The notes under the pieces were generated by a model. The model was not told the origin of the DNA, did no database searches, and saw only the letters and a list, made by a program, of their open reading frames with translations. Made by a program: the position numbers and the translations under genes. 32,000 bases of DNA. Source: Microcystis aeruginosa NIES-2549. Its GTDB lineage: Bacteria > Cyanobacteriota > Cyanobacteriia > Cyanobacteriales > Microcystaceae. Of the stretch, positions 1-32,000 are shown piece by piece. The stretch is from positions 2,880,001-2,912,000 of the forward strand of contig NZ_CP011304.1 in the NCBI RefSeq assembly GCF_000981785.2, given 5' to 3'. The number at the start of each line of letters is the position of its first letter. Within the stretch, counting starts at the first letter, position 1.

Positions 1-2353
1 TTTCTCCCACCAAAGCGACAAAGGTGCCGGCGGGGAATTCTAAATTGACGTTGTATAGTTGCAGGGCGCCGTGGGGATTGAAGCGGAAAGCGAGGTTTTC
101 GTAGGTGACATGGCCTTTAATTAAGGGCATGGGTATATTTTGGCGATCAAGTTCCGCTTCTTGGGGAGTATCGACGATATCGGCTAATCTTTCCAGGGAT
201 AAGCCGGTTTCTTGGAAGTTTTGCCAGAGTTGGGTCAAACGCAGAATCGGCGAGGTAACGTAGGAAGCGATAATCCGGAAGGCGATTAATTGACCAAGGG
301 TGAGTTTTTGGTCCAAAACTAAGGCCGCCCCCACCCACAGCACTAATAAACCCGATAATTGGTTAAAGAAGTGACTAAAGGAACCGGCCAAAGTGGAGGT
401 CATTACCGTTTGAAAACCTTCGGCCACATAGCGCGCATAACGTTCTTGCCACTGCCAACGGGAACGCAATTCGATATTCTGTGCTTTCACCGTTTGAATT
501 CCCGTCATTACCTCCACTAGATAGGATTGGGTTTCGGCATTTCGTTCGGCTTTTGCTCGCAGTTGTCGCCGCACGATCGGTGCGAAAATAGCTGTGGAGA
601 GAACTAAAATCGGCACGACTCCCAGGGCCCAAACGGTTAGGATCGGGCTATAGATCAACATAACCACGATGTAGATAACCGAGAAAATGGCATCTAACAC
701 CACTGTTAGGGCTGTCCCCGTTAAAAATTGCCGAATATTCTCTAATTCGTTGATTCTTGTCGAAATTTCCCCCACTGGCCGCCGTTCAAAGTATTTCAGG
801 GGTAAGCGCAGCAGGTGATCGATAATTTCTGAACCAAGGGTCATGTCGATGCGGTTAGTGGTATCGACAAACAGGGATGTTCTCAAAAAGGTTAAAATTC
901 CCTCAAAAACGGCAATTACCAAGAGGAAAACCCCGAGGGTGTTCAGAGTTTCCGGGCTATTCTGCACGATCACTTTATCGATGATCACCTGAATCATCAA
1001 GGGATTGGCCAGGGCAAATAACTGCACGAAGAAAGAAGCAATAAAAACTTCTATTAAGACTCGTTTATGTTTCTTGACAGAAGGCCAAAACCATGATAGG
1101 CCAAAACGCTGTTGCTGGGTGTGTTTGGTGGGTTTAAGCAGAATTACTTCCCCTTTTTCGCCCCAAGATTCCAGAAATTCGCTGGTTTTGCGTTTAATTA
1201 TCCCCCGTTCGGGAACGGCGATCGTGGTTTCCCGTTGATTAATTTCGTAGAGGATAACGATGCTATCTTGCCAGCGAATTAGGGCAGGAGGGTTGATATT
1301 GGGCAAGGAAGAAGCATTTAGGGGTACTAATTGGCTATCGAGTCCTACTACCTCGGCCACAGCCCCACACAGGGGCAGGGAAAGGCTGCCAGTTCTTTGC
1401 AGTTGATCCCCTAGAATGCGTTGGATCACGTCCTTGCGAAAGGGGATATTAAAATATTTGCAGAGCATCTGAAAACAGGCACTCACCGCTTCTAGTTCCG
1501 TTTTTCCCCTGAAAAAAGGATAGGATTTGCCGTTTTTCTTGACAGTTTTTTCAAGGTCGATATCGCTGGTGATGTCGCTTATTCTTCCTTGGGGGATATC
1601 TAATACCTGGGTGGGTTTATTTCCCTTGATGACTTGGGTTTCTAGGATATCATCCGTTTCTGTTGCTGCGGCCGCTTCGGTTTCCACTGTCAAGAATTCA
1701 TCTAACTGGTCGGAGGAAAGACCTAATAATCTGGTGTTAGTCAGATTATTCTGGGTGATAACTGTGCCGATAGGATAATTATCGGTATTTTCGCTGACTA
1801 ACCAGAGATAATCATCGTCAATCTGGTTGTAGGACACACAAGCTTTGTTTAAAAGAGCCTGAGCAATTTCTTTGAGGTCGCCCCCACCCCAGGCCTGTTG
1901 ATTAAGATAGGAGCCTAGGACAGCATAAACTTCAGCGATCGAGCTTTGTTTAAAGAAATATTGCTTAAATTCAGGATAATTATTGATTAAAGACCAAAAA
2001 TCCTCTTGTTTTAAGGTTAAACAGATAGTGACTTCCGAAGAAGCGATGACTGTTTCACAGGGGGTACCGCGCAGAAGACTGATCCACCCGAATAAATCTC
2101 CTGGCTGCAATTTAGCCAAAGTGACCGGCAGCGGATTGTTAACCCTAGCATCGTAACCCAAAAGTCTGGCCTCTCCCTCGTAGAGAAGGACGAGGTGAGA
2201 GGGTAAGAGATCGCACTTGAGCATCGCATTGCCCATCTCATAGCGAAAGGGTTGTAATTTCTGGCCAAGGGAACGTCTAACCTCGACGGGCAGGCGATCA
2301 AAGGGCTGTACAGTCTCCAGAAAAGCGGTAAAATCTAAAGTGGTGTAACTCAT
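1..2353 (-). CDS. ABC-type exporter (HlyB/bacteriocin-exporter-like permease-ATPase) with an N-terminal cyclic-nucleotide-binding-like domain and a C39-peptidase-like domain; partial, the nucleotide-binding domain runs off the 5' edge of the window
   Basis: Absent from the ORF track because it is open at the window edge. Hand translation of the minus strand from ATG (2353..2351) gives MSYTTLDFTAFLETVQPFDRLPVEVRRSLGQKLQPFRYEMGNAMLKCDLLPSHLVLLYEGEARLLG (cNMP-binding-like). Further on it gives VLIEVFIASFFVQLFALANP (ABC membrane domain, nt ~1001-1060). It ends at nt 2-58 with LYNVNLEFPAGTFVALVGE, just entering Walker A. The listed small ORFs in 147..2301 are in other frames or on the other strand. 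Confidence 0.8.
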   Translation of the reverse strand, partial: MSYTTLDFTAFLETVQPFDRLPVEVRRSLGQKLQPFRYEMGNAMLKCDLLPSHLVLLYEGEARLLGYDARVNNPLPVTLAKLQPGDLFGWISLLRGTPCETVIASSEVTICLTLKQEDFWSLINNYPEFKQYFFKQSSIAEVYAVLGSYLNQQAWGGGDLKEIAQALLNKACVSYNQIDDDYLWLVSENTDNYPIGTVITQNNLTNTRLLGLSSDQLDEFLTVETEAAAATETDDILETQVIKGNKPTQVLDIPQGRISDITSDIDLEKTVKKNGKSYPFFRGKTELEAVSACFQMLCKYFNIPFRKDVIQRILGDQLQRTGSLSLPLCGAVAEVVGLDSQLVPLNASSLPNINPPALIRWQDSIVILYEINQRETTIAVPERGIIKRKTSEFLESWGEKGEVILLKPTKHTQQQRFGLSWFWPSVKKHKRVLIEVFIASFFVQLFALANPLMIQVIIDKVIVQNSPETLNTLGVFLLVIAVFEGILTFLRTSLFVDTTNRIDMTLGSEIIDHLLRLPLKYFERRPVGEISTRINELENIRQFLTGTALTVVLDAIFSVIYIVVMLIYSPILTVWALGVVPILVLSTAIFAPIVRRQLRAKAERNAETQSYLVEVMTGIQTVKAQNIELRSRWQWQERYARYVAEGFQTVMTSTLAGSFSHFFNQLSGLLVLWVGAALVLDQKLTLGQLIAFRIIASYVTSPILRLTQLWQNFQETGLSLERLADIVDTPQEAELDRQNIPMPLIKGHVTYENLAFRFNPHGALQLYNVNLEFPAGTFVALVGE

Positions 2354-2428
2354 TAGCTAGGCGAAAATTGACTAAGTTGGCAAATAATTAGGCGAGAAGA
2401 CTGGGTTTACCCAGTGTTGCAAGGGATG

Positions 2429-3190
2429 CTATATAAGTGATAGCTGCTCGCCATTGACTGGGGTTGATTCGGAGATAAATTTCACTGTTTGCATTTGAGC
2501 CGTTAACCATTGTTGGAATAAATCATTGCGTAAGCGTTGACGGGTGGGAGGATCCAGTTCACAGGATAAATATTTTTCTAGCCGGACAATCACGACCCAT
2601 TCTCCCACTTGCGTCGGTGGCCACACTTGCCCCGGTTTACTTGCCTTGAGAATTTGCCCAATCTGGGGATGGGGGGCGCTCAGTTCCACCGGTCCAATTA
2701 GTCCTCCAGTTTCCGCTTCTGAGCCTTGGGAGTATTTTTTGGCTAGTTCAGCGAAGCTATTTTCTCGATCCTGTATCCGGAAAAATAGTTCCTGGGCAAT
2801 GCCGAGATTTTTTGTCCGAATCAGCGAATAAACCACCTTATCCAACTGATTTTTGACTTGCAAGAAGTAGGATTCTACTTTGTTATCCCAAGTCTCCTGT
2901 TTAAATTTTTCCAATTTAATGTCCCGAAGAATTAGATATTCTAGTTGTTCGGAATCCATTCCGTTTTGTTGTAACCAAGATTTCATTTGTTCATCGTTGG
3001 CAATTTGATTATTTTGATAGAAACGGGAATAGGCGGCGTTTCTTTCTTCGGGATTGCAGCTGATATTGGCGATCGCTTTCTCGATAATTACTTCCCGGAT
3101 TAACTGCGGTAACATACCATATTTTGCCAAAAGAGGCAATACCTGTGACTCGCTAACTTTTTGGTCGCCGATTTCAATAATTGAACTCAT
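2429..3190 (-). CDS. Parvulin-type peptidyl-prolyl cis-trans isomerase (SurA/PrsA-like), 253 aa
   Basis: The C-terminal half (FAELAKKYSQGSEAETGGLIGPVELSAPHPQIGQILKASKPGQVWPPTQVGEWVVIVRLEKY) matches the rotamase/PpiC pattern. It is co-oriented with the downstream ABC exporter with a 75-nt gap, so it is probably in the same operon. Confidence 0.7.
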   Translation of the reverse strand: MSSIIEIGDQKVSESQVLPLLAKYGMLPQLIREVIIEKAIANISCNPEERNAAYSRFYQNNQIANDEQMKSWLQQNGMDSEQLEYLILRDIKLEKFKQETWDNKVESYFLQVKNQLDKVVYSLIRTKNLGIAQELFFRIQDRENSFAELAKKYSQGSEAETGGLIGPVELSAPHPQIGQILKASKPGQVWPPTQVGEWVVIVRLEKYLSCELDPPTRQRLRNDLFQQWLTAQMQTVKFISESTPVNGEQLSLI

Positions 3191-3501
3191 AATAAATACA
3201 TTTTCCTCACAGAAAGGCTTAAAACTATAAACTCTAGAAGCTTCTAAATTTTATTGAGGTGATTATACGTCAAAAGAGGGATTTCAAGGTATTCCCCCCT
3301 ATTCTAATTTGAGTTTTCCCCCGTGAAAGCCGAAAATTACAGAAATTAAAGGAATAAGTCGGTCCTCTTGGTGGGGGTGGTGAGGGGAATTGGCCCGGCC
3401 AGTAGGCCTGCCTAAAATCCTGCTCAGAAACCCCTAATCACGCCTCTAATTGACTAGAATAGACTTCTTGCAGAAGTGGGGGAAGGGGAAAAGCGGAAAT
3501 T

Positions 3502-3611: not shown

Positions 3612-3696
3612 GGAGAGGTGGCAGAGTGGTCGATCGCGCTCGACTTGAAATCGAGTAACCAGCAATGGTTCGTGGGTTCAAATCCCACCCTCTCCG
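3612..3696 (+). tRNA. tRNA-Ser (anticodon UGA), class II with long variable arm
   Basis: Acceptor stem GGAGAGG/CCTCTCC with discriminator G. Anticodon stem CTCGA/TCGAG with loop CTTGAAA (anticodon TGA). Long variable arm. T arm GTGGG-TTCAAAT-CCCAC. CCA is not encoded. Confidence 0.92.
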
Positions 3697-3803
3697 TACT
3701 CAACCAATCAAATTGAGACTCAGGTTGCCCGATTGTTCGTAGACAGGGGAAAATAAAATATACTAGGCTAAAAAGATAACATTGAGGCAGTAGCCCCCCC
3801 GGC

Positions 3804-4319
3804 ATGGTTTTTTGGAAAAGATTGTTTAATAGCTCGGAAGTCACTGCATCACCTGACTATTCGGGAGACTTGGTAGAGGTTGGCCAGAATGACCTCGGAC
3901 AGACGCGAGTGTTTTTTAGTACCGATCGAGAGCTAGATCTGTATGAGTTAGAAGAACTTTGTGACTCGGTAGGTTGGGCCCGTCGTCCTTTACGCAAAGT
4001 TAAAAAGGCGATCGAATGTAGTTTTTTAGTGGTATCGATGTGGGAAGTGCGAGGTAATCGCCGTCGTTTAGTGGGTTTTGCTCGTGCCACTTCCGATCAC
4101 GCTTTTAATGCCACGGTCTGGGATGTGGTTGTTCATCCTCACTATCAAAGTAAAGGCTTTGGTAAAGCATTAATGAAATTTATGATCAGGAAGTTGCGGG
4201 GCGAGGATATCAGTAATATAACTCTTTTCGCCGATCCACAGGTGGTGGATTTCTATCGTCGTCTCGGTTTTGTTCTCGATCCCGAAGGTATCAAAGGTAT
4301 GTTTTGGTATCCCGATTAA
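3804..4319 (+). CDS. GNAT-family N-acetyltransferase, 171 aa
   Basis: Acetyl-CoA binding motif region [27 protein letters not shown] (Q/RxxGxG/A pattern), followed by [15 protein letters not shown], which is typical of the GNAT fold. Confidence 0.8.
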
Positions 4320-4359
4320 GAATGCCGCTCTTAGGCTATACTAAAAAAGGAATTCACTT

Positions 4360-4433
4360 CGGGATGTAGCGCAGCTTGGTAGCGCGCCTGCTTTGGGAGC
4401 AGGATGCCGCAGGTTCAAATCCTGTCATCCCGA
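4360..4433 (+). tRNA. tRNA-Pro (anticodon UGG)
   Basis: Acceptor stem CGGGATG/CATCCCG with discriminator A. Anticodon stem CCTGC/GCAGG with loop TTTGGGA (anticodon TGG). T arm GCAGG-TTCAAAT-CCTGT. Confidence 0.92.
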
Positions 4434-4482
4434 CTGGAGAAAAAATTATTAAAATCTTAACCTTGTCTCCTTTCCGGTTGAC

Positions 4483-4502
4483 AAAAAAGGCTGCCTTCTT
4501 TT
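4483..4502. terminator. Candidate bidirectional stem-loop between tRNA-Pro (+) and the rpoC2 3' end (-)
   Basis: aaaaaagg-ctg-ccttctttt forms an A/T-flanked short hairpin readable on both strands. The stem is weak. Confidence 0.3.
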
Positions 4503-4652
4503 ATTGCCAAACGGAGGTGAATTAGCCAGAAAATTAGGGACTTTGGGGAGAAAAGCAGGAGATTTTTGGGGAATAACAAGGATTTTTCTCTAGAAAAATT
4601 GCCCTTGCCTCCCCGTGTCTCCCACTGCTCTTTGTAATATCTCGACAGACGA

Positions 4653-7600
4653 TTATTCTTCTTCTTCGTAATCCTCCTCGAAATCTTCTTCCTCCCCTTC
4701 CTCATCAGCTGCTGACCAGCTGTCGCTGATAGGTTGGCGACTAAAGCGACTGCTGCCGCGGGAGGAGAGGAAAGCCATCTCATCATCCTCTAAATCGACC
4801 ACATCACCCTCAGCGTAGGCGCGAGCGGTTTGATCGTCAAGAATCATATCGCTATCGTCACTACTATCGCCGAAACCGGGACGGGGGGGGAAGCCGATCG
4901 CGCCGGGGGCAGCGTAATAGCTACGATTGTTGTAGTTATATTCCTCCTCTGGGGGGGTGTAATCGCTGATCCCCGCCGTGTTTTCGTGGGAATTGAAGCC
5001 AGTACCCGCCGGAATCAGACGACCGATAATCACGTTTTCCTTGAGACCGCGTAACCAGTCGGACTTGCCTTCGATCGCCGCTTCGGTGAGGACGCGGGTG
5101 GTTTCTTGGAAGGAGGCGGCACTGATAAAGCTATCGGTATTCAAGGAAGCTTTGGTGATCCCCAGTAGTACAGGCGTATATTTAGCCGCCGCCCCACCGG
5201 TGATCGACATGGCTTCGTTTACTGTTTCCACCTGTCGCAGTTCCAACAATTCCCCGGGTAACATACTGGTATCGCCGCCGTCATCGATCCGCACCTTAGA
5301 GGTCATCTGACGCACAATCACTTCAATATGTTTATCGGCAATATCGATCCCCTGGGACTGATAGACCGACTGTACCTGATCGACGAGGAACATCTGGGTT
5401 TTTTCCAAGGCTTTCAGGGCTGCCTCGTAACTGCCCAAGCTATCCACATAATAATTAAAGAACACCTCTAAAATCTCGTGCGGATTAGCCTGACCATCGG
5501 TTAACGCCTGACCCACATCAATACGCTGATTATCGCTCACCAGAGGGTTTTGACTGCCTAAAAGCGGATATTCACTGATCGTGCCGTCATCCTCGACCAC
5601 CTTAATATCGACGATCTCAGAATCTTGGTACTCCACTTGACAAAATCCCGGTTTGCGTGCTAGGACACAAGCCTCTTTCGGCTTACGCGCTTCGAGCAGT
5701 TCTTCGATTCTGGGTAAACCTTGAATGATATCCCCAGTTTTCGAGCGCTCAAACACCAACAGGACCAAATTATCGCCCCTTTGGACTAGATCTCCCTCAT
5801 CGATGTGCAGAATGGCCCCCGCCGATACTCGGTAGGGTCGGGCGCTACGCAGACGGATTTCGTAGCCGGTGGCGGTTTTGTCAACGGCCAGCACTTGACC
5901 GGAATTGGGGGCTAAAACTCCGGCACCGATCTCGGTTTCGGCGATCACCAGATCCCCAGCTTTGACGGTGGGAGCAACAGCCTTGCCCTGAGCTACGTCG
6001 AAGGGGAGCGGGAGAATAAACTCGTCACGGTCACTCACAATTAAAAGACGGCGCACCGCTTCGCTACCCTTGCGAATCCCGCGAATTTCTCCAACTTCCT
6101 TACACTGGATCTCGGTTCTGGCCACCACTGCTCCAGGTGGAATTTCATCGCCATCTTGGACGAGAACGCGAGTCTGAATATTCCCCCCTAAAGGATCACT
6201 ATCACTATCCCGACGCAGCACCAGAGATTCCAGAATAACTAACTGTAAACGCTGACAATCGCTGTCCTCAATCGGTTCTAACTCGATATCAGCCGTCAGA
6301 TGGGAGACTGATTCTGGTTCTTCGCTAGAAATTTCTAGGACTAATTGGGTGCTAATCAGTTGACAACCCTCAACGGATTTAACTCTTTCCCCGTCTTTAA
6401 AGAAGATGCGCTGCACCGATCGCAGTTCGATATGTCGTCCTCCTTCTTGGTTAGCGGAACCTTGGGTGGGAGAAGTGGATTGGTCCTGTACGGTGAACTC
6501 CTGTACCGGTCGCAGCAGTAACCCCAAACCCTCGTTAGTTTCTACCCATTCGGCTTGCCGTAACTCCTCGATCGTCACTTCGGGAGTCAACTGTGTTCCG
6601 GGGTAAATTAACTGTTCTTGGGCAATTCCGGAGGATTCTGGTTCGAGATCCATAAATAACAGCCCCGGTTTGACAATAATCTCCCGGAGGATGTCATTTT
6701 TCTGGATAACTTCCACCACACCGCTAGAGTTACAGAAGATGTCTTTAACCACTTCTTCCCCTGCCTCCACATACTGCCCATCTTCCACCTGTAAGAGGGA
6801 GATATCTTTATTGACTTCGTGGGTTTCTTCGGGAATCCAGAGGATCGTGCCGCCTTTAGTGATTTCATAACCCTGTTTGCGGCTGCCTTTGGAGACTTCG
6901 ATATCGACGTATTTAATCATGCCGCCGGTGTGGGTTTGATAGCGATCATCGATTAACTCAGCGACAATGGCATGATTCTGTACTTTTGTCCCCGGAGTGG
7001 TTTTCAGCAGGAAGCGTTGACCATCGGCCGTATGAATAATAAATTGTTCCCGACCGGCACTACTTTCTACTTTTACTTCGGCCTGATCCAAAGACACGGA
7101 AGCGGTGACGATATCGATTTCCCGGCTATTGGGGGCTAAACGCACCAAACCGCCGTTAGTGGATACCAACTTAGTTTCCGCCAGAACATCCCCCACTTGT
7201 ACTTGATCGCCGTTACTGACCACGGGTTCAGCCCCTGGGGGCAAGTTATACACTTCTCCGGAGAGAATCCATAGTAATCCCCCCCGTTGGGCGATGCGGG
7301 TGGTGTTGCCTTGGCGATCGGTTTTTTCTTCTGGGACTAATTGGGAGAATAGCACCTCGCCGGCTAAGTCACTGGTTACGTCTTTTGTGGCTTTTTCCGT
7401 GGATTTTTGGACTTTATCGGAGGTAATTTCCGCTAGTAACTGTTCCTCGCTTACTGTTGCCCCATCGGTGACGAATAGCAGCGACCCCGGAGTCAAAGAG
7501 TAGGTGACGGTTTCCTTAGTTTTATCCTTGGGCGTTAATTTAATTTCCCCCGGTGCCTCCACTTGATCCCGTTCATCCCCGTGGCGAGTGCGCACGTTAC

Positions 7601-24743: not shown

Positions 24744-25679
24744 ATGAAAGTATTGATTACTGGTGCCAGTGGTTTTGTTGGTTCCCATGTAGCAAGGCTT
24801 TTAATAGCCGAAGGGTGTGAGGTACACGCACTTGTGCGAGAAAACGGCGAACAATGGCGAATTCAAGATATTCTTCCATCACTACATTTATGGCAATCTG
24901 ACTTAGTAGCATTTGAAACAGTGAATGCTTATTTACAGAAAATCAAGCCTGAATTGTGTATTCACTTAGCTTGGTATGTTGGGTCAGGAAAACAACTAAA
25001 TTCTCGGGAAAACTTGAATTCATTTCAGGCAAGTCTTAATTTATTCTCTCAACTAGCTGAAGTAGGTTGTAAGCGGTTTGTGGGTATAGGGACTTGTTTT
25101 GAGTATGATTTCAATCTAGGATATTTTTCTGAATCAAGTCCGACAAAACCCATCACCTTATATGCAGCGACCAAGGTGGCACTATTCACTATTTTACAAC
25201 AACTAGCCCAGAGCGCCGAAGTAGAGTTAACATGGGTTCGTTTGTTTTATCAGTATGGTCCAATGGAGGATGAGCGACGGTTAATTCCGTCGGTTATTTG
25301 TTCACTGCTGCGGGATGAAGTGGTAAAAACAACTAAAGGTGAACAAGTTCTGGATTTCCTTCATGTTGAGGATATAGCATCGGCAATTTGGGCAGTTGCG
25401 AAGAGCAACGTTTCAGGTGTAGTTAATGTTGGTTCTGGTCAACCTGTAACCGTTGGACAAATAGCACTTGAACTTGGTAATTTATTAGGTAAACCTGATT
25501 TAATTCATCTGGGTGCTTTACCTTACCGTCCCAATGATCCCATGTTTATTTGTGCTAATAATGAGTTGCTTAGGAGAAAGACTGATTGGACACAAAAATA
25601 TAATTTAACGACGGGATTAAAAAATACAATTGAATGGTATAAAGACCATTTAAACATAAATAAAATTGAGGAAATTTAA
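24744..25679 (+). CDS. NAD(P)-dependent extended-SDR epimerase/reductase (candidate CDP-3,6-dideoxyhexose synthase, RfbS/RfbJ-like), 311 aa
   Basis: MKVLITGASGFVGSHVARLL (GxxGxxG) and YAATKVA (YxxxK). The position immediately after rfbF-G-H suggests the 4-keto reductase step. The specific sugar cannot be assigned. Confidence 0.7.
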   Translation: MKVLITGASGFVGSHVARLLIAEGCEVHALVRENGEQWRIQDILPSLHLWQSDLVAFETVNAYLQKIKPELCIHLAWYVGSGKQLNSRENLNSFQASLNLFSQLAEVGCKRFVGIGTCFEYDFNLGYFSESSPTKPITLYAATKVALFTILQQLAQSAEVELTWVRLFYQYGPMEDERRLIPSVICSLLRDEVVKTTKGEQVLDFLHVEDIASAIWAVAKSNVSGVVNVGSGQPVTVGQIALELGNLLGKPDLIHLGALPYRPNDPMFICANNELLRRKTDWTQKYNLTTGLKNTIEWYKDHLNINKIEEI

Positions 25680-25680
25680 G

Positions 25681-26628
25681 ATGAGTAAAAAATTAATTAG
25701 TGTTGTTACTCCCTGCTACAATGAACAAGATAATGTTGAGTTTTCATATACTGAGGTCAAAGATATTTTTGCAAGATTAGGAAAGTATGAATACGAACAT
25801 ATTTTTATTGATAATGACTCTCAAGATAAAACAGTCAGTATATTAGAGAAAATCTCTCAAAGCGACTCTAGAGTCAAAATTATCATTAACGCTAGGAATT
25901 TTGGCTTTGTTCGTTCTACCTATTACGGCCTCTTACAAGGAACTGGAGATGCGGTTATTTTAGTCTTCGCCGATTGTCAAGATCCTCCCGAACTAATCGT
26001 CGATTTTTTAGAAAAATGGGAGGAAGGCTATCAAGTTGTTAAAGGAATTAAAAGCTCGAGTCAAGAGAATTCTTTGGTCTATGGTATAAGAAAATTTTAT
26101 TATTTTTTAGTTAGGACTCTATCAGAAGAGATTGACTTAACTGCTAATTTTACGGGCTTCGGTTTATATGATCACAAAGTGATAGAAGCATTGCGTTTGA
26201 TCGATGATCCTTATCCCTACTTAAAGGGTCTTATTTCAGAAGTCGGTTTTAAGAGCACTAAAATCGAATATCATCAGCAAGTCAGAAAACGAGGTAAGAG
26301 TAGTTTCAATTTTTATCGAATGTACGATCTGGCAATGCTGGGCATCACTACCTATTCTAATTTTCCGCTAAGATTGGCGACAATGATCGGGTTCGCTCTA
26401 TCTCTAGTGAGTTTTCTGGTCGGTCTGGTGACTTTGATTTTGAAGCTTCTGTTTTGGAACCTTTTCCCCATAGGAATAGCAGCGATCATTATCGGATTGT
26501 TTCTTTTTTCTTCTGTACAGTTATTTTTTATAGGTATTTTAGGAGAATATATTGGTTTGATAAATAGACGAAGCTTAAAAAGACCTCTAGTGGTAGAGAG
26601 AGCGCGAGTCAACTTTGATATTAAATAG
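25681..26628 (+). CDS. GtrB/ArnC/DPM1-like family 2 glycosyltransferase (polyprenyl-phosphate sugar synthase) with two C-terminal TM helices, 315 aa
   Basis: ISVVTPCYNEQDNV...IFIDNDSQDKT...FADCQDPPELI, plus a C-terminal hydrophobic pair (LATMIGFALSLVSFLVGLV...IAAIIIGLFLFSSVQLFFIGILGEYIG). ATG 25681 is preceded by GAGGA. The track start 25666 is TTG. Confidence 0.85.
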   Translation: MSKKLISVVTPCYNEQDNVEFSYTEVKDIFARLGKYEYEHIFIDNDSQDKTVSILEKISQSDSRVKIIINARNFGFVRSTYYGLLQGTGDAVILVFADCQDPPELIVDFLEKWEEGYQVVKGIKSSSQENSLVYGIRKFYYFLVRTLSEEIDLTANFTGFGLYDHKVIEALRLIDDPYPYLKGLISEVGFKSTKIEYHQQVRKRGKSSFNFYRMYDLAMLGITTYSNFPLRLATMIGFALSLVSFLVGLVTLILKLLFWNLFPIGIAAIIIGLFLFSSVQLFFIGILGEYIGLINRRSLKRPLVVERARVNFDIK

Positions 26629-26676
26629 TGAACAGTATTTTTAGACAATTTCGTACCGAAATGAGAATTTATTAAC

Positions 26677-27685
26677 ATGGAACGCCATACTAAAATCAGA
26701 TTTATTAGCACAATTATAGTTATAGGCTTTGCCATCGCCGTTTTTTATCACTACAGGATGGGAGCTTATTTAGGCAATCAACATCCTCTTAATACTTTTT
26801 TATTTACACCTAACGATAAGTTTAATGACTTTTGGAACATGGTTAAATTTATCAAAGAACTTAATCCCTACAGAAGTGATGTTTATATTTTTGGTATATA
26901 TAGCAAAGAGCGGGGTGGTTAGGACAATCAATCGCTGAAACCCTTGACCGATAAGAGTTTGAAAATTGAAAGCGTCCTAACTAACTCGTTCTATGCCATA
27001 TTATCCATTGGGGGAGTTATTTTTCTTCCCGTTTACTATATTTAAGAGCAGAGATTTAGCACTATTAGTATTTTTGAGTATTTTTGGCTCTACCGAACCT
27101 GTCATGTAAAACTATCAACAATTCGTGCTTGTAAAGTTTGTATACTAAGGCTTTGAGTTTTTGTTAGATTGATATTTATCAACTTTAGAGCATTGCTGGG
27201 CAGAGAGGGAGCTTGAGGAATTTTCTACAGTGTAAGTTCGGAAGAACCTTTTTGATTGGGTTTCACTACTTTTGAGACCCTATTCTGTACTATCGTTAAT
27301 AATAGTAGGATTGGTAAGTTTATACATTCTGACTAAGGAGAAACTTTTCTGGAAAAAACTAGCTCTTTTAGTTTTTGTGATGAATGTTATCCCCCCCACA
27401 TCAGGAGATTATCGACTGCTCAATCTTTTTATTCCTTTGGCTTTTTTTATTAATGAACCAAAGTCAAGTAAGTTTGATTTAGCCTATCTGATCCTGTTTG
27501 GTCTTTTGCTCATTCCCAAAAATTACTTTATTATTCCAGCCATGACCGATATCGGACTTAGCATAGGAGTTATTATTAATCCATTGTTAATGTTAATATT
27601 TGGGTTTTTGATTATTAAGGAAGGATTAAGTAAGACAACAAGAGATATACCCAAACAAAGCCTTGATAGGTCAGTTCGAGAATAA
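26677..27685 (+). pseudogene. Fragmented membrane protein gene, probably a GT-C-fold (DUF2029-like) glycosyltransferase partner of the GtrB-like enzyme
   Basis: There are three co-linear pieces. Piece 1 is 26677..26922 (TM helix, then PNDKFNDFWNMVKFIKELNPYRSDVY). Piece 2 is 26981..27109 in the +1 frame (MPYYPLGELFFFPFTIF...ALLVFLSIFGS). Piece 3 is 27236..27685 (four or more TM segments). The DF...NPY...YPPL-like pattern resembles GT-C enzymes. Several stops lie between the pieces. Confidence 0.45.
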
Positions 27686-27741
27686 GTTTAACCTGATTGC
27701 CCAATTGTGAGAGACAATAGACAAAATATGACTAATACTGA

Positions 27742-27783
27742 CAATTGAGAGCGCTAGGGGTTGACATTGATGATAGTTTATGA
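27742..27783 (+). pseudogene. Orphan remnant of a Uma2-gene C-terminal tail (QLRALGVDIDDSL*)
   Basis: caattgagagcgctaggggttgacattgatgatagtttatga parallels the tail ends of the genes ending at 28541 and 29448 (LRALGVEVDDSV*). An in-frame TGA immediately precedes it. Confidence 0.6.
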
Positions 27784-27821
27784 TAGGAAAGTAGCACCAG
27801 TTGTTCACCCCAACTAATCCA

Positions 27822-28541
27822 ATGGCTGAAGAAACCCTCCTAATTGCAGCTAACCCACAAGGGATCAAGCTACCACCGACCCAAGATGAGCTACCTTCTG
27901 ATGATGGTATTCCCATGGAAACCCAGCGACACGGACTGCAAATGCAGTTATTAGTTAGACCTCTCTCCCAATGGTTAAAAACTCAGGGACGAGAAGCGTT
28001 TGTCGGAGGCAATATGTTTGTTTACTTTAGCCCTAATCAAGTGCGTAACGAGGATTATCGCGGGCCCGATGTATTTGTAGTTGTGGACGTGCCTCGAAAA
28101 GAAAGGAAAAGCTGGGTCGTCTGGGAAGAAGAGAAAGCCCCTGATGTGGTGATTGAGTTGCTCTCTGAAAGTACAGCGCAAAAAGATAAAGAAGAGAAAA
28201 AACTCATCTATCAGAATCGTTTGCGGGTGACAGAATACTTTTGGTATGATCCCTTTGACCCAGAAGATTTAGCGGGACATCGCTTAGAAGGGGGTGTTTA
28301 TAAATCTTTAAACCCAGATGCTCAAGGCAGGTTCAGCAGCGAAATATTAGGGCTAGTGTTAGTGCGGTGGCAGGGAATTTATGGGGATGAACAAGAGCCG
28401 ATTACTTGGCTACGTTGGGCAACAGCAGAGGGGCAATTGCTCCCCACCATAGAGGAGTTGGCCGAGCAGGAAAAGCAACGGGCTGAACGCTTGGCAGCAA
28501 AATTAAGAGCGCTAGGAGTTGAAGTTGATGATAGTGTATGA
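27822..28541 (+). CDS. Uma2-family (DUF820) putative PD-(D/E)xK endonuclease with a C-terminal coiled-coil tail, divergent paralog
   Basis: LPSDDGIPMETQRH...GPDVFVVVDVP...APDVVIELLSESTAQKDKEEKKLIYQNRLRVTEYFWYDP is the Uma2 pattern as I recall it. Tail: EQEKQRAERLAAKLRALGVEVDDSV. ATG 27822 is preferred over TTG 27801. Confidence 0.75.
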   Translation: MAEETLLIAANPQGIKLPPTQDELPSDDGIPMETQRHGLQMQLLVRPLSQWLKTQGREAFVGGNMFVYFSPNQVRNEDYRGPDVFVVVDVPRKERKSWVVWEEEKAPDVVIELLSESTAQKDKEEKKLIYQNRLRVTEYFWYDPFDPEDLAGHRLEGGVYKSLNPDAQGRFSSEILGLVLVRWQGIYGDEQEPITWLRWATAEGQLLPTIEELAEQEKQRAERLAAKLRALGVEVDDSV

Positions 28542-28656
28542 AATAATTGCAGGCATTGTCCACCTACAGGTCTATTTGATAATTAATTTAATGCACCTAC
28601 TTAGTCGTGGACAGTTTATGAGAGCTTATTAAATATAGGAAGGACTGTTTACGACA

Positions 28657-29448
28657 ATGACACCATCTACAATTAATTTGTTCAAAAAATCAACGATAAT
28701 CACCTGGGAAAAACTGCCAGATGATTTTATTCTACCTGACGAACCTGTGGACAACAACTTGCAACCCCTATTAGCAGCAGCTTTACGAGAATCGTTAGAA
28801 TTAGCAGGACTAATTCTAGAATCGATGCTAATTGCCTCTAATTTTGGCTTGTGTGCTACCGTTAAAACTCAAACTGTTGTCAAAGCACCTGATTGGGTTT
28901 ATATTCCCTCAGTAAAACCGATTGCTAGTGGAGAAATTCGGCGCAGTTATACTCCCCATCTCCAAGGAGAAATTCCTACCATCGTCCTAGAGTTTATCTC
29001 GGAAACCGAAGGGGGTGAGTATTCCATCAATCCTCACTATCCCTATGGAAAATGGTATTTTTACGAGCAAATCTTACAAGTACCTGTCTATGGAATATTT
29101 CAGCCAAAAACAGGAGAATTAGAAATTTATCGATTGAATCAAGGAAGGTATGAACAACAAAAACCTGATGAAAACAATCGTTATTGGATAGCAGAGATTA
29201 ACTTATTTTTGGGAGTCTGGCAAGGAACCAAAGCTGAATTTACTACTAATTGGTTGCGCTGGTGGGATAAGTCGGGCAATCTGTTATTATGGGGGAGTGA
29301 GTTAGTAGAGCAAGAAAAGCAACGGGCAGAGCAAGAAAAGCAACGAGCCGCGCAAGAAAAACTGAAGGCCGAGCAAGAAAAGCAACGGGCCGAACGCTTG
29401 GCGGCACAATTGCGATCGCTGGGAGTTGAAGTTGATGATAGTGTATGA
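28657..29448 (+). CDS. Uma2-family putative endonuclease, tandem paralog A, 263 aa
   Basis: WEKLPDDFILPDEPVDNNLQP...KAPDWVYIPSV...IPTIVLEFISETEGGEY...YGKWYFYEQILQVPVYGIFQP. The tail has a 4x heptad repeat and ends RLAAQLRSLGVEVDDSV. Confidence 0.75.
   Translation: MTPSTINLFKKSTIITWEKLPDDFILPDEPVDNNLQPLLAAALRESLELAGLILESMLIASNFGLCATVKTQTVVKAPDWVYIPSVKPIASGEIRRSYTPHLQGEIPTIVLEFISETEGGEYSINPHYPYGKWYFYEQILQVPVYGIFQPKTGELEIYRLNQGRYEQQKPDENNRYWIAEINLFLGVWQGTKAEFTTNWLRWWDKSGNLLLWGSELVEQEKQRAEQEKQRAAQEKLKAEQEKQRAERLAAQLRSLGVEVDDSV
29308..29391 (+). repeat. In-frame 21-bp tandem repeat x4 (EQEKQRA heptads) in the tail of paralog A
   Basis: Units at 29308, 29329, 29350 and 29371: gagcaagaaaagcaacgggca / gagcaagaaaagcaacgagcc / gcgcaagaaaaactgaaggcc / gagcaagaaaagcaacgggcc. 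The gene ending at 28541 has a single unit. Confidence 0.9.
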
Positions 29449-29564
29449 GATAATTGCAGGCATTGTCCACCTAGATGTCTATTTTATAATTAATTTAATG
29501 CACCTACTTAGTTGCGGGCAGTTTATGAGAGCTTATTAAATATTAGGAAGGACTGTTTACGACA

Positions 29565-30332
29565 ATGACACCATCTACAATTAATTTGTTCAAAAAATCA
29601 ACGATAATCACCTGGGAAAAACTGCCAGATGATTTTATTCTACCTGACGAACCTGTGGACAACAACTTGCAACCCCTATTAGCAGCAGCTTTACGAGAAT
29701 CGTTAGAATTAGCAGGACTAATTCTAGAATCGATGCTAATTGCCTCTAATTTTGGCTTGTGTGCTACCGTTAAAACTCAAACTGTTGTCAAAGCACCTGA
29801 TTGGGTTTATATTCCCTCAGTAAAACCCATTGCTAGTGGAGAAATTCGGCGCAGTTACACTCCCCACCTCCAAGGAGAAATTCCTACCATCGTCCTAGAG
29901 TTTATCTCGGAAACCGAAGGGGGTGAATATTCCATCAACCCTCACTATCCCTATGGAAAATGGTATTTTTACGAGCAAATCTTACAAGTACCTGTCTATG
30001 GAATATTTCAGCCAAAAACCGGAGAATTAGAAATTTATCGATTGAATCAAGGAAGATATGAACAACAAAAAACTAATGAAAACAATCGTTATTGGATAGC
30101 AGAGATTAACTTATTTTTGGGAGTCTGGCAGGGAAAAAAAGCGGAAGTAACAGCCTATTGGTTACGTTGGTGGGATAAGTCGGGCAATCTGTTATTGTGG
30201 GGGAGTGAGTTAGTGGAGCAAGAGCGTCAACGAGCCGAACAAGCTGAGTTAGAACTTGAGCAAGAACGAATTTCTCGCCAACGTTTGGTGCAAAAGTTAA
30301 AAGAGTTGGGAGTCAATCCTGAAAATCTATAG
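29565..30332 (+). CDS. Uma2-family putative endonuclease, tandem paralog B, 255 aa
   Basis: Residues 1-168 are identical in protein to paralog A. It differs in the patch QQKTNENN...GKKAEVTAYW and in the tail (..ELGVNPENL). Confidence 0.75.
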   Translation: MTPSTINLFKKSTIITWEKLPDDFILPDEPVDNNLQPLLAAALRESLELAGLILESMLIASNFGLCATVKTQTVVKAPDWVYIPSVKPIASGEIRRSYTPHLQGEIPTIVLEFISETEGGEYSINPHYPYGKWYFYEQILQVPVYGIFQPKTGELEIYRLNQGRYEQQKTNENNRYWIAEINLFLGVWQGKKAEVTAYWLRWWDKSGNLLLWGSELVEQERQRAEQAELELEQERISRQRLVQKLKELGVNPENL

Positions 30333-30366
30333 CCCATTTTAGATATTTGAATTAGTGAAATTACTT

Positions 30367-31113
30367 ATGACAGCCATGCAACTACTTCAGTCAAACCCCT
30401 TACCAACTATTACCTGGGAAAAACTGCCAGAAGATTTCATTCTACCTGACGAACCTGTGGACAACAACTTGCAACCCCTATTAGCAGCAGCTTTACGAGA
30501 ATCGTTAGAATTAGCAGGACTAATTCTAGAATCGATGCTAATTGCCTCTAATTTTGGCTTGTGTGCTACCGTTAAAACTCAAACTGTTGTCAAAGCACCT
30601 GATTGGGTTTATATTCCCTCAGTAAAACCCATTGCTAGTGGAGAAATTCGGCGCAGTTACACTCCCCACCTCGAAGGAGAAATTCCTACCATCGTCCTAG
30701 AGTTTATCTCGGAAACCGAAGGGGGTGAGTATTCCATCAATCCTCACTATCCCTATGGAAAATGGTATTTTTACGAGCAAATCTTACAAGTACCTGTCTA
30801 TGGAATATTTCAGCCAAAAACGGGAGAATTAGAAATTTATCGATTAAATCAAGGAAGGTATGAACAACAAAAACCTGATGAAAACAATCGTTATTGGATA
30901 GCAGAGATTAACTTATTTTTGGGAGTCTGGCAAGGAACCAAAGCTGAATTTACTACTAATTGGTTGCGCTGGTGGGATAAGTCGGGCAATCTGTTATTAT
31001 GGGGGAGTGAACGAGTCGCACAAACTGAATATCAACTCGAACAGGAGCGAATGTTACGGCAAAAATTAGCTGAAAAATTAAGAGAATTAGGCGTTGAACC
31101 AGAAACCTTGTAG
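30367..31113 (+). CDS. Uma2-family putative endonuclease, tandem paralog C, about 248 aa
   Basis: Distinct N-terminus (MTAMQLLQSNPLPTI). The core is near-identical to A and B. It has the A-type variable patch (PDENN...GTKAEFTTNW) and a B-like tail class (..ELGVEPETL). ATG 30367 is preferred over GTG 30355. Confidence 0.75.
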   Translation: MTAMQLLQSNPLPTITWEKLPEDFILPDEPVDNNLQPLLAAALRESLELAGLILESMLIASNFGLCATVKTQTVVKAPDWVYIPSVKPIASGEIRRSYTPHLEGEIPTIVLEFISETEGGEYSINPHYPYGKWYFYEQILQVPVYGIFQPKTGELEIYRLNQGRYEQQKPDENNRYWIAEINLFLGVWQGTKAEFTTNWLRWWDKSGNLLLWGSERVAQTEYQLEQERMLRQKLAEKLRELGVEPETL

Positions 31114-31174: not shown

Positions 31175-32000
31175 ATGCAACCTAACCTAACAAATGACTT
31201 AAATCACATTCTTGCCCATACTAAAACCCTGTGGGAGGAATTGCGGGGACAACGGATATTTATTACCGGAGGTACAGGCTTTTTTGGCTGTTGGCTTCTG
31301 GAAAGTTTTATCTGGGCCAATGATCAGCTAGACTTAAAAGCATCGGCAGTGGTTTTAACCAGAAATCCTGATAGTTTCAGGCAAAAAGCTCCTCATTTAG
31401 CCAATCATCCCGCTATTCAATTCCATAGCGGTGATGTTAGGTCATTTCAGTTTCCTGAAGGGGAGTTTTCTTATATTATTCATGGTGCCACTGAAGCGAG
31501 TGCCAAGCTCAATCAAGAAGATCCCTTACTAATGTTTGATACGATTATTGAGGGAACACGACATACTTTAGAATTTGCTAAATTTTGTCAGGCTAAAAAG
31601 TTCTTATTAACCAGTTCCGGTGCCGTTTATGGCAAGCAGCCATCAGAAATCACCCATGTTTCTGAAGACTATTTAGGCTCTCCTGATTTAACTAATCCGG
31701 GTTATGCTTATGCAGAAGGAAAACGAGCCGCGGAAATGCTCTGTACTCTTTATGCTAAACAACAGGGATTAGAAACGAAAATTGCTCGTTGCTTTGCCTT
31801 TGTCGGTCCCTATTTGCCCCTGGATACCCATTTTGCTATTGGTAATTTCATTCGAGATGGTATGACGGGGGGGCCGATTCTCATCCAGGGGGATGGTACT
31901 CCTTATCGTTCTTACCTCTATGCGGCGGATTTGGCGATTTGGCTGTGGACAATTTTGTTTAAGGGAAAATCATGCTACCCTTACAATGTCGGTTCAGATG
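31175..32000 (+). CDS. NAD-dependent epimerase/dehydratase (extended SDR), 5' partial; continues beyond the window
   Basis: Not in the track because it is open at the window edge. Hand translation: [49 protein letters not shown]...[10 protein letters not shown]...[12 protein letters not shown] (GxxGxxG and YxxxK). Confidence 0.8.

Follow-up and report, generated by a model that had tools for sequence, protein, structure and literature searches.

Why does a surface-polysaccharide locus in a bloom-forming cyanobacterium carry several near-identical genes for a putative nuclease, and does the patchwork of segments among them reflect a system for making variants or recombination between tandem repeats? 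We addressed this question in a 32,000-nt stretch of Microcystis aeruginosa NIES-2549 (hereafter the window, whose positions serve as coordinates), in which four co-oriented open reading frames (ORFs) of the Uma2 family (PF05685) occupy 27801-31113; all features of this array lie on the + strand. A preliminary description made from the DNA letters had regarded the genes as a diversifying cassette system. Our comparison with other genomes indicates that the array is very probably a Microcystis-specific tandem amplification of a conserved cyanobacterial Uma2 gene, evolving by unequal crossing-over and gene conversion, and not a programmed cassette system.

Layout of the Uma2 array

The four Uma2 genes previously described as lying back to back were present, and all passed the Pfam gathering cut-off of 27 bits, with scores of 81.4 (G1), 46.3 (A), 49.0 (B) and 45.4 (C). 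The parts of the array are as follows.

27733..27783, + strand: X0 remnant at the left limit of the array, 3' end (...LRALGVDIDDSL and stop) of a deleted fifth Uma2 gene, A-type
27801 (TTG) or, likelier, 27822 (ATG) to 28541, + strand: G1, divergent Uma2 paralog with a T1 tail (...EQEKQRAERLAAKLRALGVEVDDSV)
28460..28698, + strand: junction block J1, copy 1; G1 T1 tail, 115-bp spacer (28542-28656) and N1 codons of A; repeat families D3 and D4
28657..29448, + strand: gene A (263 aa); N1 leader, core 28699-29301, four 21-bp repeats, T1 tail
29308..29393, + strand: 21-bp tandem repeat, 4.1 copies, heptad EQEKQRA; TRF period 21, score 116; repeat families D5 and D6
29367..29606, + strand: junction block J1, copy 2; A T1 tail, 116-bp spacer (29449-29564) and N1 codons of B
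29565..30332, + strand: gene B (255 aa); N1 leader, core 29607-30209 with the Pb patch allele (TNENN..GKKAEVTAYW), one heptad, T2 tail (...LVQKLKELGVNPENL)
30209..30408, + strand: junction block J2; B T2 tail, 34-bp spacer (30333-30366) and N2 codons of C
30367..31113 (alternative GTG start 30355), + strand: gene C (248 aa); N2 leader, core 30409-31011, no heptad repeat, T3 tail (...KLRELGVEPETL); terminal anchor copy

Mosaic among copies A, B and C

A, B and C share an ungapped core of 603 nt that runs from ITWEKL to LWGSE. We counted 22 differences between A and B, 10 between A and C, and 25 between B and C; the first two pairs had been put at about 20 and 8 by eye. A three-way alignment reproduced every pattern reported earlier for the N-terminus and spacer, the internal patch, the tail and the core single-nucleotide differences. 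In the 5' spacer and N-terminus A equals B and C differs at about 45 sites, B equals C at three synonymous core sites (28920, 28950 and 28959), and from 29019 to 29289 A equals C and 18 changes are private to B. The tail of A equals that of G1, and 28460-28636 matches 29367-29543 (G1 or A tail plus spacer) at 92%. The tails of B and C end in ...PENL and ...PETL, respectively.

With only three A-type copies, each variable site is private to one copy, and spatial clustering alone is testable. The private changes follow one another along the core in the order CCCAAACBB*CBBBBBBBBBBBBBBBBC, and a runs test in which the labels were permuted gave p=1.2e-4 for so few runs. Maximum chi-square tests gave p<2e-4 for A-B and for B-C, with a breakpoint near core nt 524. 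The mosaic in the window fits no single tree and is more than chance would give.

The same locus in other Microcystis

We compared nine loci, L001 and L081-L088, from Microcystis assemblies and metagenome contigs.

L001, BLCC-F210: six Uma2 copies
L081, M. panniformis FACHB-1757: seven Uma2 copies
L082, MC19: six Uma2 copies
L083, M. protocystis FBCC-A270 (CP191407): three Uma2 copies
L084, EAWAG127a: three Uma2 copies
L085 and L086, M. wesenbergii: a G1-type and one A-type copy; L085 has a second G1-type copy about 6.6 kb downstream
L087 and L088, metagenome contigs: one and two Uma2 copies

Copy number (1-7) and module content vary between strains at this syntenic locus, as the preliminary description had expected, and arrays of three to seven copies occur here in four long chromosome records. 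The final copy is a 248-aa T3 gene in all nine loci. It is adjoined by a gene for a short-chain dehydrogenase/reductase (SDR; 346-352 aa) in seven of them (L081, L082 and L084-L088); an IS630-type transposase gene follows in BLCC-F210 and only short ORFs follow in M. protocystis. G1 orthologs occupy the equivalent array position in L001, L081, L082, L085 and L086. An intact A-type gene, X0, lies upstream of G1 in BLCC-F210 and M. panniformis, and in M. panniformis its end (L081 4963-5012) agrees with window positions 27741-27790 at 100% identity, so the window has lost this gene. The remnant, which the preliminary description had overlooked, also matches the X0 end in BLCC-F210; it is a tail-end copy of 40-50 nt immediately 5' of G1 and belongs to families D7 and D8 of the repeat finder. 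From 27744 to 29357 (G1, J1 and the 5' part of A) the window is collinear with MC19 at 96%.

The closest relatives of the array proteins are in Microcystis, at up to 96% identity. In 75 Microcystis proteins we found a few recurring modules in many combinations: three leaders (MTPSTINLFKKS, MTPSAIDLPTKS and MTAMQLLQS), two patch alleles (EFTTNW and EVTAYW) and three tails (T1 ...LGVEVDDSV, T2 ...LGVNPENL and T3 ...LGVEPETL). Eleven of the 12 possible combinations of N-terminus, patch and tail were present.

Recombination between cores and the junction rule

Nineteen A-type cores from four genomes contained 99 informative sites. The pairwise homoplasy index (PHI) test gave p<2e-4 (0 of 5000 permutations), 1727 of 4095 site pairs failed the four-gamete test, and the Hudson-Kaplan minimum number of recombination events (Rm) was at least 22. 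Together with the runs and maximum chi-square tests, these results support the reticulate history with repeated unequal crossing-over or gene conversion that had been proposed. Core identity was 0.941 within arrays versus 0.922 between arrays, and gene C had its highest identity with gene A (0.983), above that with its positional orthologs at the array ends of other strains (0.94-0.96). Therefore, the copies evolve in concert.

The tail type of each gene went with the N-terminus of the next at all 23 junctions: T1 was followed by N1 in 12 of 12 cases and T2 by N2 in 11 of 11 (Fisher p=7e-7). Spacers measured 115 or 116 nt after T1, with extra inserted DNA in three cases, and 34 or 35 nt after T2. 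Because the upstream tail sets the N-terminus, what is actually repeated is a core together with a junction block (tail, spacer and the leader that follows). The N-terminus and tail of one gene thus lie in different blocks, and core crossovers give all N-by-tail combinations without exchange at module borders.

Nine J1 spacers from five genomes were 94% identical, and eleven J2 spacers from six genomes were 96% identical. A promoter-like site, TTGTCC-16-(T/G)ATAAT, was conserved in the nine J1 spacers, and J1 also has a Shine-Dalgarno-like AGGAAGGA box; J2 had neither a promoter-like site nor this box. The sites in the window are listed below.

28556-28583, J1 copy 1: promoter-like TTGTCC-16-GATAAT; the spacer also has the Shine-Dalgarno-like box AGGAAGGA
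29463-29490, J1 copy 2: promoter-like TTGTCC-16-TATAAT

A promoter and terminator scan was not enriched overall (17 promoter-like sites versus 12.1±3.2 in shuffles); therefore, the J1 site is put forward on the strength of its conservation in nine spacers. A transcript probably begins in J1, and J2 probably joins two genes into one, so that C would be co-transcribed with B. The inverted repeat TGTCCAC...GTGGACA in the J1 spacer was considered as a functional RNA hairpin and rejected, since half of the copies read GCGGGCA in the 3' arm without a compensatory substitution. Inserts have lengthened two J1 spacers, one to 256 bp (L081 10772-11027) and one to 308 bp (L088 1117-1424). These inserts have terminal inverted repeats (GGCTCTTC...GAAGAGCC and GGTTCTTCG...CGAAGAACC), the L081 insert is flanked by a duplicated AATAATTG, and both look like miniature inverted-repeat transposable elements (MITEs).

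Repeats of 600 bp at 96-98% identity are difficult for short reads, and mis-joining of such repeats could yield a mosaic and a copy number that are not biological. This explanation is highly implausible: the same architecture and junction rule recur in the four long chromosome records and several independent contigs, the collinearity with MC19 holds across G1, J1 and part of A, and chimeric joins would break reading frames and the 7-residue periodicity described below.

Tails, heptad repeat and selection

The length of the tail past LWGSE was 27+7k residues in T1, 40+7k in T2 and 33 in T3, with steps of 7 only. The underlying 21-bp repeat was present at 0-7 copies across strains, and the T3 tail was fixed at 33 residues in 24 of 24 proteins. 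The last approximately 12 residues followed the consensus (R/K)L(A/V)x(K/Q)L(R/K)xLG(V/I)(D/E/N) in T1, T2, T3 and G1, and also in a Calothrix paralog of about 32% identity; L248 and L252 were at least 90% conserved or invariant among 129 sequences. Since this terminal motif is conserved across tail types and paralogs, the ends are not hypervariable addresses. T1 and T2 tails have no in-frame Met, and T3 has one Met 18 residues from the end. EQEKQRA consists of four charged residues, two Gln and one Ala, and judged by this composition the run resembles one charged helix, or a spacer, more closely than it does a classic coiled coil with a hydrophobic seam. Within most arrays no two copies share both tail type and tail length, L083 being the exception.

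All copies are complete ORFs with start codons and are under purifying selection. The Nei-Gojobori ratio of nonsynonymous to synonymous divergence (dN/dS) in 28 cores was 0.13 for the whole core, 0.065 for codons 1-140 and 0.16 for codons 141-201, which hold the patch alleles. The proportion of synonymous differences (pS) was also highest in codons 141-201 (0.40), so the patch alleles are old and not fast-evolving.

These data bear on the proposal that the array is a programmed diversification system, serving to make nuclease variants that combine an invariant catalytic body with exchangeable "address" ends. The reticulate mosaic and the variation between strains, the 11 module combinations in 75 proteins and the variable helix length agree with it. 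However, every copy is a full ORF, the J1 spacers have promoter-like sites, and a single expression locus is absent; the modules come in no more than two or three alleles each, the C-terminal motif is kept in all tail types, and the N-terminal variation amounts to a 14-residue leader. The junction rule derives the N-by-tail combinations from core crossovers, dN/dS is low (0.13-0.16), and Pfam scans of the main ORFs across the 32-kb window returned neither a recombinase nor a reverse-transcriptase domain. We consider programmed diversification very improbable, and neither the cassette system nor the variable address ends of the preliminary description were borne out. A diversity-generating retroelement type of mechanism was likewise rejected, as the scanned window ORFs held no reverse transcriptase and the substitutions, patch differences included, were not adenine-biased.

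Predicted fold and conserved residues

An AlphaFold2 model of A, based on a 129-sequence alignment of both subfamilies, had a predicted local distance difference test score (pLDDT) of 86.5 and a predicted template modelling score (pTM) of 0.78. An earlier model from 47 close homologs had reached a pLDDT of 56 with the N-terminal half unmodelled, and about 80 G1-type sequences were added for the final one. The model consists of an alpha/beta core, a beta-rich region with an invariant WLRW, and a long helix (residues 213-254, pLDDT >88); the 14-residue leader is of low confidence (residues 1-11, pLDDT <50). Foldseek placed the Uma2 structures 9y1l and 6okh first (E 1e-4, probability 1.0, target-normalised TM 0.50-0.59), and the next match was the restriction endonuclease BpuSI (probability 0.77).

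Phmmer searches of PDB sequences with A and with the A-type profile returned only coiled-coil noise and a marginal match to 9y1l. Because this direct route is too weak, the link of A to solved structures runs via G1, which matches 9y1l and 6okh by phmmer and the A-type profile by hhalign (probability 97.7%), and via the fold search. D79, S115 and K132 were invariant and E112 was at least 90% conserved in the 129 sequences. By hhalign these signature residues align to the PD, ELLSE (E..S) and K motifs of G1; the E..S and K motifs of G1 align in turn to both 9y1l and 6okh, and its PD to 6okh. In the model, D79 immediately precedes strand 80-83, strand 109-113 contains E112, and K132 is the first residue of helix 132-140. 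The D, E and K residues suggested earlier as catalytic candidates are thus conserved and sit on the expected structural elements, and the model shows a predicted PD-(D/E)xK fold with conserved D79, E112, S115 and K132. We infer that the proteins are putative active metal-dependent DNA nucleases in which the EQEKQRA run would form a rigid charged helix and the terminal LxxxLxxLG motif a putative docking or pairing site.

Orthologs outside Microcystis and genomic associations

A-type orthologs outside Microcystis were 55-76% identical and occurred at 75 loci in many cyanobacterial genera. Apart from a few short fragments, each of these approximately 20-kb loci held one full-length A-type match, and G1-type genes were likewise widespread outside Microcystis. 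In a Desertifilum metagenome-assembled genome (L059 5341-5466), 66 bp separate the first A-type match from the start of a second (74%, 42 aa), which the contig end truncates; tandem duplication of the A-type gene may not be strictly limited to Microcystis.

Genes for polysaccharide synthesis lay immediately upstream of the A-type ortholog in about 16 of 73 loci, a share of about a fifth, uncorrected for background or phylogeny, to which many related genomes contribute; the association outside Microcystis is only suggestive. The order wzm-Uma2-wzt was found in four loci (L003, L013, L014 and L021), whose wzm-like ABC-2 permeases are 80-86% identical to one another and in which the gene on the other side encodes a Wzt-type ABC ATPase. 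The A-type match occupies 1432-2148 in L014 and lies near position 10001 in the three others. A polysaccharide pyruvyl transferase gene is directly upstream in five Microcoleus-type loci, for example 23 bp away in L062. L021 (CALRKB020000058.1) is labelled "MAG: Rhizobium sp. Q54", and its A-type Uma2 gene (76% identity) has cyanobacterial-style wzm and wzt neighbours; it is probably a binning contaminant.

Uma2 appears in the literature as a predicted endonuclease whose context is conserved in cyanobacteria (PMC3424549), and COG4636 (Uma2) has been linked by neighbourhood to the COG5464 (YhgA/Rpn) nucleases (PMC1913061). In the window, Pfam scans found no YhgA/Rpn-like domain and reported Uma2 as the sole nuclease family. 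Uma2 is transcriptionally responsive in blooms (PMC13485200). In the literature searched, we found no description of a Microcystis Uma2 tandem array, and the earlier statement that Uma2 is functionally uncharacterised holds there.

Another explanation is that the copies are anti-phage paralogs, toxic or restriction-like nucleases whose helix length or tail would set self-pairing or a trigger, as in Rpn. It draws on the match of G1 to three PDC-S03 profiles of PADLOC-DB 2.0, which is weak (E 2.5e-10 to 1.9e-8, 38 bits), on the Uma2 crystal-structure fold with BpuSI as the next match, on copy numbers that differ between strains, and on tails whose type and length are unique to each copy in most arrays, L083 excepted. 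Uma2 is also an accessory gene in Microcystis type III CRISPR loci (PMC11855584), and in Rpn proteins, which act in phage defence, variable numbers of a 4-residue repeat in a helical oligomerisation domain tune partner matching (PMC10400941). On the other hand, A and C had no match to PDC-S03 and B only one of E=0.004. The neighbours in the window are by Pfam RNA polymerase, TatD, sugar-nucleotide enzymes, glycosyltransferases and similar genes, not defence genes. The A-type gene, at 55-76% identity, essentially single-copy in the 75 loci of other genera and of low dN/dS, is unlike fast-moving defence genes. There were no phage homologs in 50,697 phage records and only four distant copies on cyanobacterial plasmids, and the tails, as read from the sequence, have no evident RpnS-like internal small ORF. 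We regard this explanation as possible but unlikely.

Flanks of the array and neighbouring features

The array is bounded in the window by the following features.

26629..27732, + strand: decayed segment, strain-specific and of low GC content, between a glycosyltransferase family 2 (GT2) gene and the array; outside the array, sets its left boundary
31175..32000, running off the window end, + strand: SDR/epimerase gene (Pfam Epimerase 4.4e-34); right bound of the array

As described previously, an SDR gene lies on the right and decayed sequence on the left, where ORFs at 26677-26922 and 27272-27685 are frame-broken. These ORFs had no Pfam match, so the decayed gene is at best a putative glycosyltransferase gene; the GT2 gene and the decayed ORFs together span 25666-27685. 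GC content was 0.40-0.43 in the array, a native value, and 0.35-0.37 in the decayed segment. A dispersed repeat of about 165 bp at 27086-27248 interrupts the decayed ORF region; copies of 93-95% identity lie at unrelated sites (L081 379-541, L001 3742-3904 and L084 18828-19007), and the repeat resembles a MITE or some other small mobile element.

Homology between the window and MC19 starts exactly at 27744. The segment 26620-27743 is unrelated to L082 2971-5542, and both flanks are 96-98% identical, a pattern suggestive of cassette replacement with Uma2 sequence at the boundary. L081 5283-7307 and L082 3037-5174 carry, between X0 and the G1-type gene, a gene for a protein of 674-705 aa with about ten hydrophobic segments and no Pfam match, which may be an O-antigen polymerase- or ligase-like membrane protein. 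In M. panniformis this polytopic protein has 674 aa and its gene is followed by tail-like sequence; in MC19 the gene is split into parts of 529 and 190 aa. M. wesenbergii L085 has three tandem membrane-protein genes (1-610, cut by the locus end, 1105-3222 and 3717-5834), each followed by an X0-tail remnant. In BLCC-F210 (L001 8026-9362), the DegT-type aminotransferase gene upstream of the array is split into two ORFs of 141 and 281 aa, and the locus there is in decay. In M. protocystis L083, the NTP transferase, dehydratase and DegT genes to the left of the array are absent and three intact Uma2 copies are kept.

The flanks raise the question of whether the Uma2 repeats, possibly through their nucleases, drive the exchange of polysaccharide cassettes at this locus. 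The wholly different left segment of MC19 with homology resuming exactly at the X0 remnant, the membrane-protein genes with tail remnants in M. panniformis and in three tandem copies in M. wesenbergii, and the approximately one fifth of A-type loci in other genera that adjoin wzm, wzt, pyruvyl-transferase or glycosyltransferase genes are consistent with such a role, and the related YhgA/Rpn family is named for promoting recombination (PMC10400941). Nevertheless, any repeat provides homology and a nuclease function is unnecessary for this, M. protocystis keeps three intact copies without the flanking polysaccharide genes, most orthologs in other genera have unrelated neighbours, and the share with polysaccharide neighbours is uncorrected for background. 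A role as a recombination anchor is improbable.

Rfam gave no matches in the array and only two tRNAs far upstream; these genes (3612-3696 and 4360-4433) flank a GNAT acetyltransferase gene near rpoC2/rpoB, about 20 kb upstream of the array, an ordinary housekeeping context. NCBIfam had no named model for the array proteins. The octamer HIP1, GCGATCGC, occurs at 29412-29419 inside the T1 tail of gene A (..LRSLG..), and the homologous position in the G1 tail has GAGCGCTA.

Proposed history of the array

On the tandem-amplification reading, the array repeats at intervals of about 0.8-0.9 kb that are out of phase with gene boundaries. Each period comprises the approximately 600-bp core and a junction block, which starts with the tail of one gene (i) and continues through the spacer into the first 14 codons of the next (i+1). 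Junction blocks come in two variants, J1 (T1 tail, 115-bp spacer with the promoter-like site, N1) and J2 (T2 tail, 34-bp spacer, N2). Unequal crossing-over between cores would add, delete and reorder these blocks, gene conversion would carry short tracts between copies, and slippage or unequal exchange at the 21-bp repeat would change the charged helix by whole heptads; the terminal T3 copy, beside the SDR gene or its remnant, is never lost. In the window, a B-like core was probably joined to a G1-type tail at the shared EQE(K/R)QRAE motif by an exchange that produced the T1 tail of A and the second J1 spacer. Later tracts would account for the identity of A and B over 28636-28919 and of A and C over about 28964-29299.

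Several points weigh against this history or limit it. From the window by itself, conversion and locally faster change in B look alike, and the case depends on the other genomes. Co-adaptation between adjacent proteins, and not mere physical linkage, could also underlie the junction rule. The spacers (94-96%) are more conserved than synonymous sites (pS 0.24), which suggests either constraint or very frequent homogenisation. Three to seven intact copies are kept under purifying selection, which implies that multiplicity matters, and neutral recombination does not explain this. Finally, no biochemical activity of any Uma2 protein was found in the searched literature. As to the role of the array, we favour a DNA-directed, housekeeping or defence-like putative nuclease kept in several copies; we saw no evidence for shuffling itself as a function.

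Uma2/DUF820 is among the most expanded cyanobacterial families, and the array is a tractable entry point to it: a bloom-forming genus carries, at one fixed chromosomal site, 1-7 intact copies that differ mainly in the length of the C-terminal helix. The array is also a likely assembly trap, a potential strain-typing marker, and a marker of the breakpoint of cassette exchange in the Microcystis surface-polysaccharide cluster, which is relevant to cyanophage host range.

Comparison with known systems

The array genes belong with Uma2/DUF820/COG4636 (PF05685; structures 1wdj, 3ot2, 6okh and 9y1l) by Pfam score, by superposition of the A model on 9y1l and 6okh, and by the D...E..S...K signature; the family description, expanded in cyanobacteria and without known function, fits them. 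The solved structures have about 190 residues, whereas the array proteins add the WLRW beta-hairpin region and a charged helix of 40-75 residues ending in LxxxLxxLG(V/I). The array differs from other Uma2 genes in that one subfamily is tandemly amplified at a single locus in Microcystis.

By analogy, the Rpn (YhgA-like) nucleases (Zhong et al. 2023, PMC10400941) appear to be the closest functional counterpart, with a PD-(D/E)xK domain, a C-terminal helix that varies by short repeats, and duplicated or tandem genes; rpn arrays of 11, 3 and 3 copies occur in Thermosynechococcus (PMC9403480). However, Rpn belongs to another Pfam family and its repeat is of 4 residues (12 bp), compared with 7 residues (21 bp) in the Uma2 array. 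Unlike Rpn, the array genes have no evident internal start for a small C-terminal protein, and strong purifying selection acts on their body, which is conserved phylum-wide.

The HsdS subunits of EcoR124I/II resemble the array in having short repeats that vary between strains in a helical spacer of a nuclease-associated protein; these are TAEL repeats (cited in PMC10400941). In a known complex, the HsdS repeat determines how far apart the DNA half-sites lie, whereas the Uma2 array has no adjacent methylase and no known partner or DNA target. With the tuning of RpnL-RpnS pairing by 4-residue repeats and the setting of EcoR124 target spacing by TAEL repeats as analogues, the copies might form a functional panel in which helix length (7-residue steps, about 1 nm per repeat if fully helical) and tail type choose which copies pair or the distance of cutting from a bound site, each rigid, charged helix being capped by the putative docking motif. 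This idea is rather doubtful; if true, reshuffling would alter defence specificity or recombination at the surface-polysaccharide locus, and the array would give a first functional handle on the large cyanobacterial Uma2 expansion. PDC-S03 is itself a PADLOC candidate, and the likeness to it is limited to the profile matches of G1.

In the silent-cassette systems Neisseria pilE/pilS and Borrelia vlsE/vls, one expressed locus is combined with promoterless partial cassettes, positively selected hypervariable regions and high switching. The array shares with them the exchange of related segments by gene conversion; in contrast, its copies are complete, its alleles few and its dN/dS low. Concerted evolution by unequal crossing-over and gene conversion is familiar from, for example, rRNA operons and tandem surface-protein genes. 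The array resembles such tandem paralogs in within-array similarity, copy-number variation, tract mosaics and exchange in the most similar segment, and differs in keeping two alternating junction variants and a fixed terminal copy, with a readable rule from tail to N-terminus that is not usually seen. This junction rule is a clean natural example of how unequal crossing-over in a core produces apparent domain shuffling, and it advises caution in reading such mosaics as designed cassette systems.

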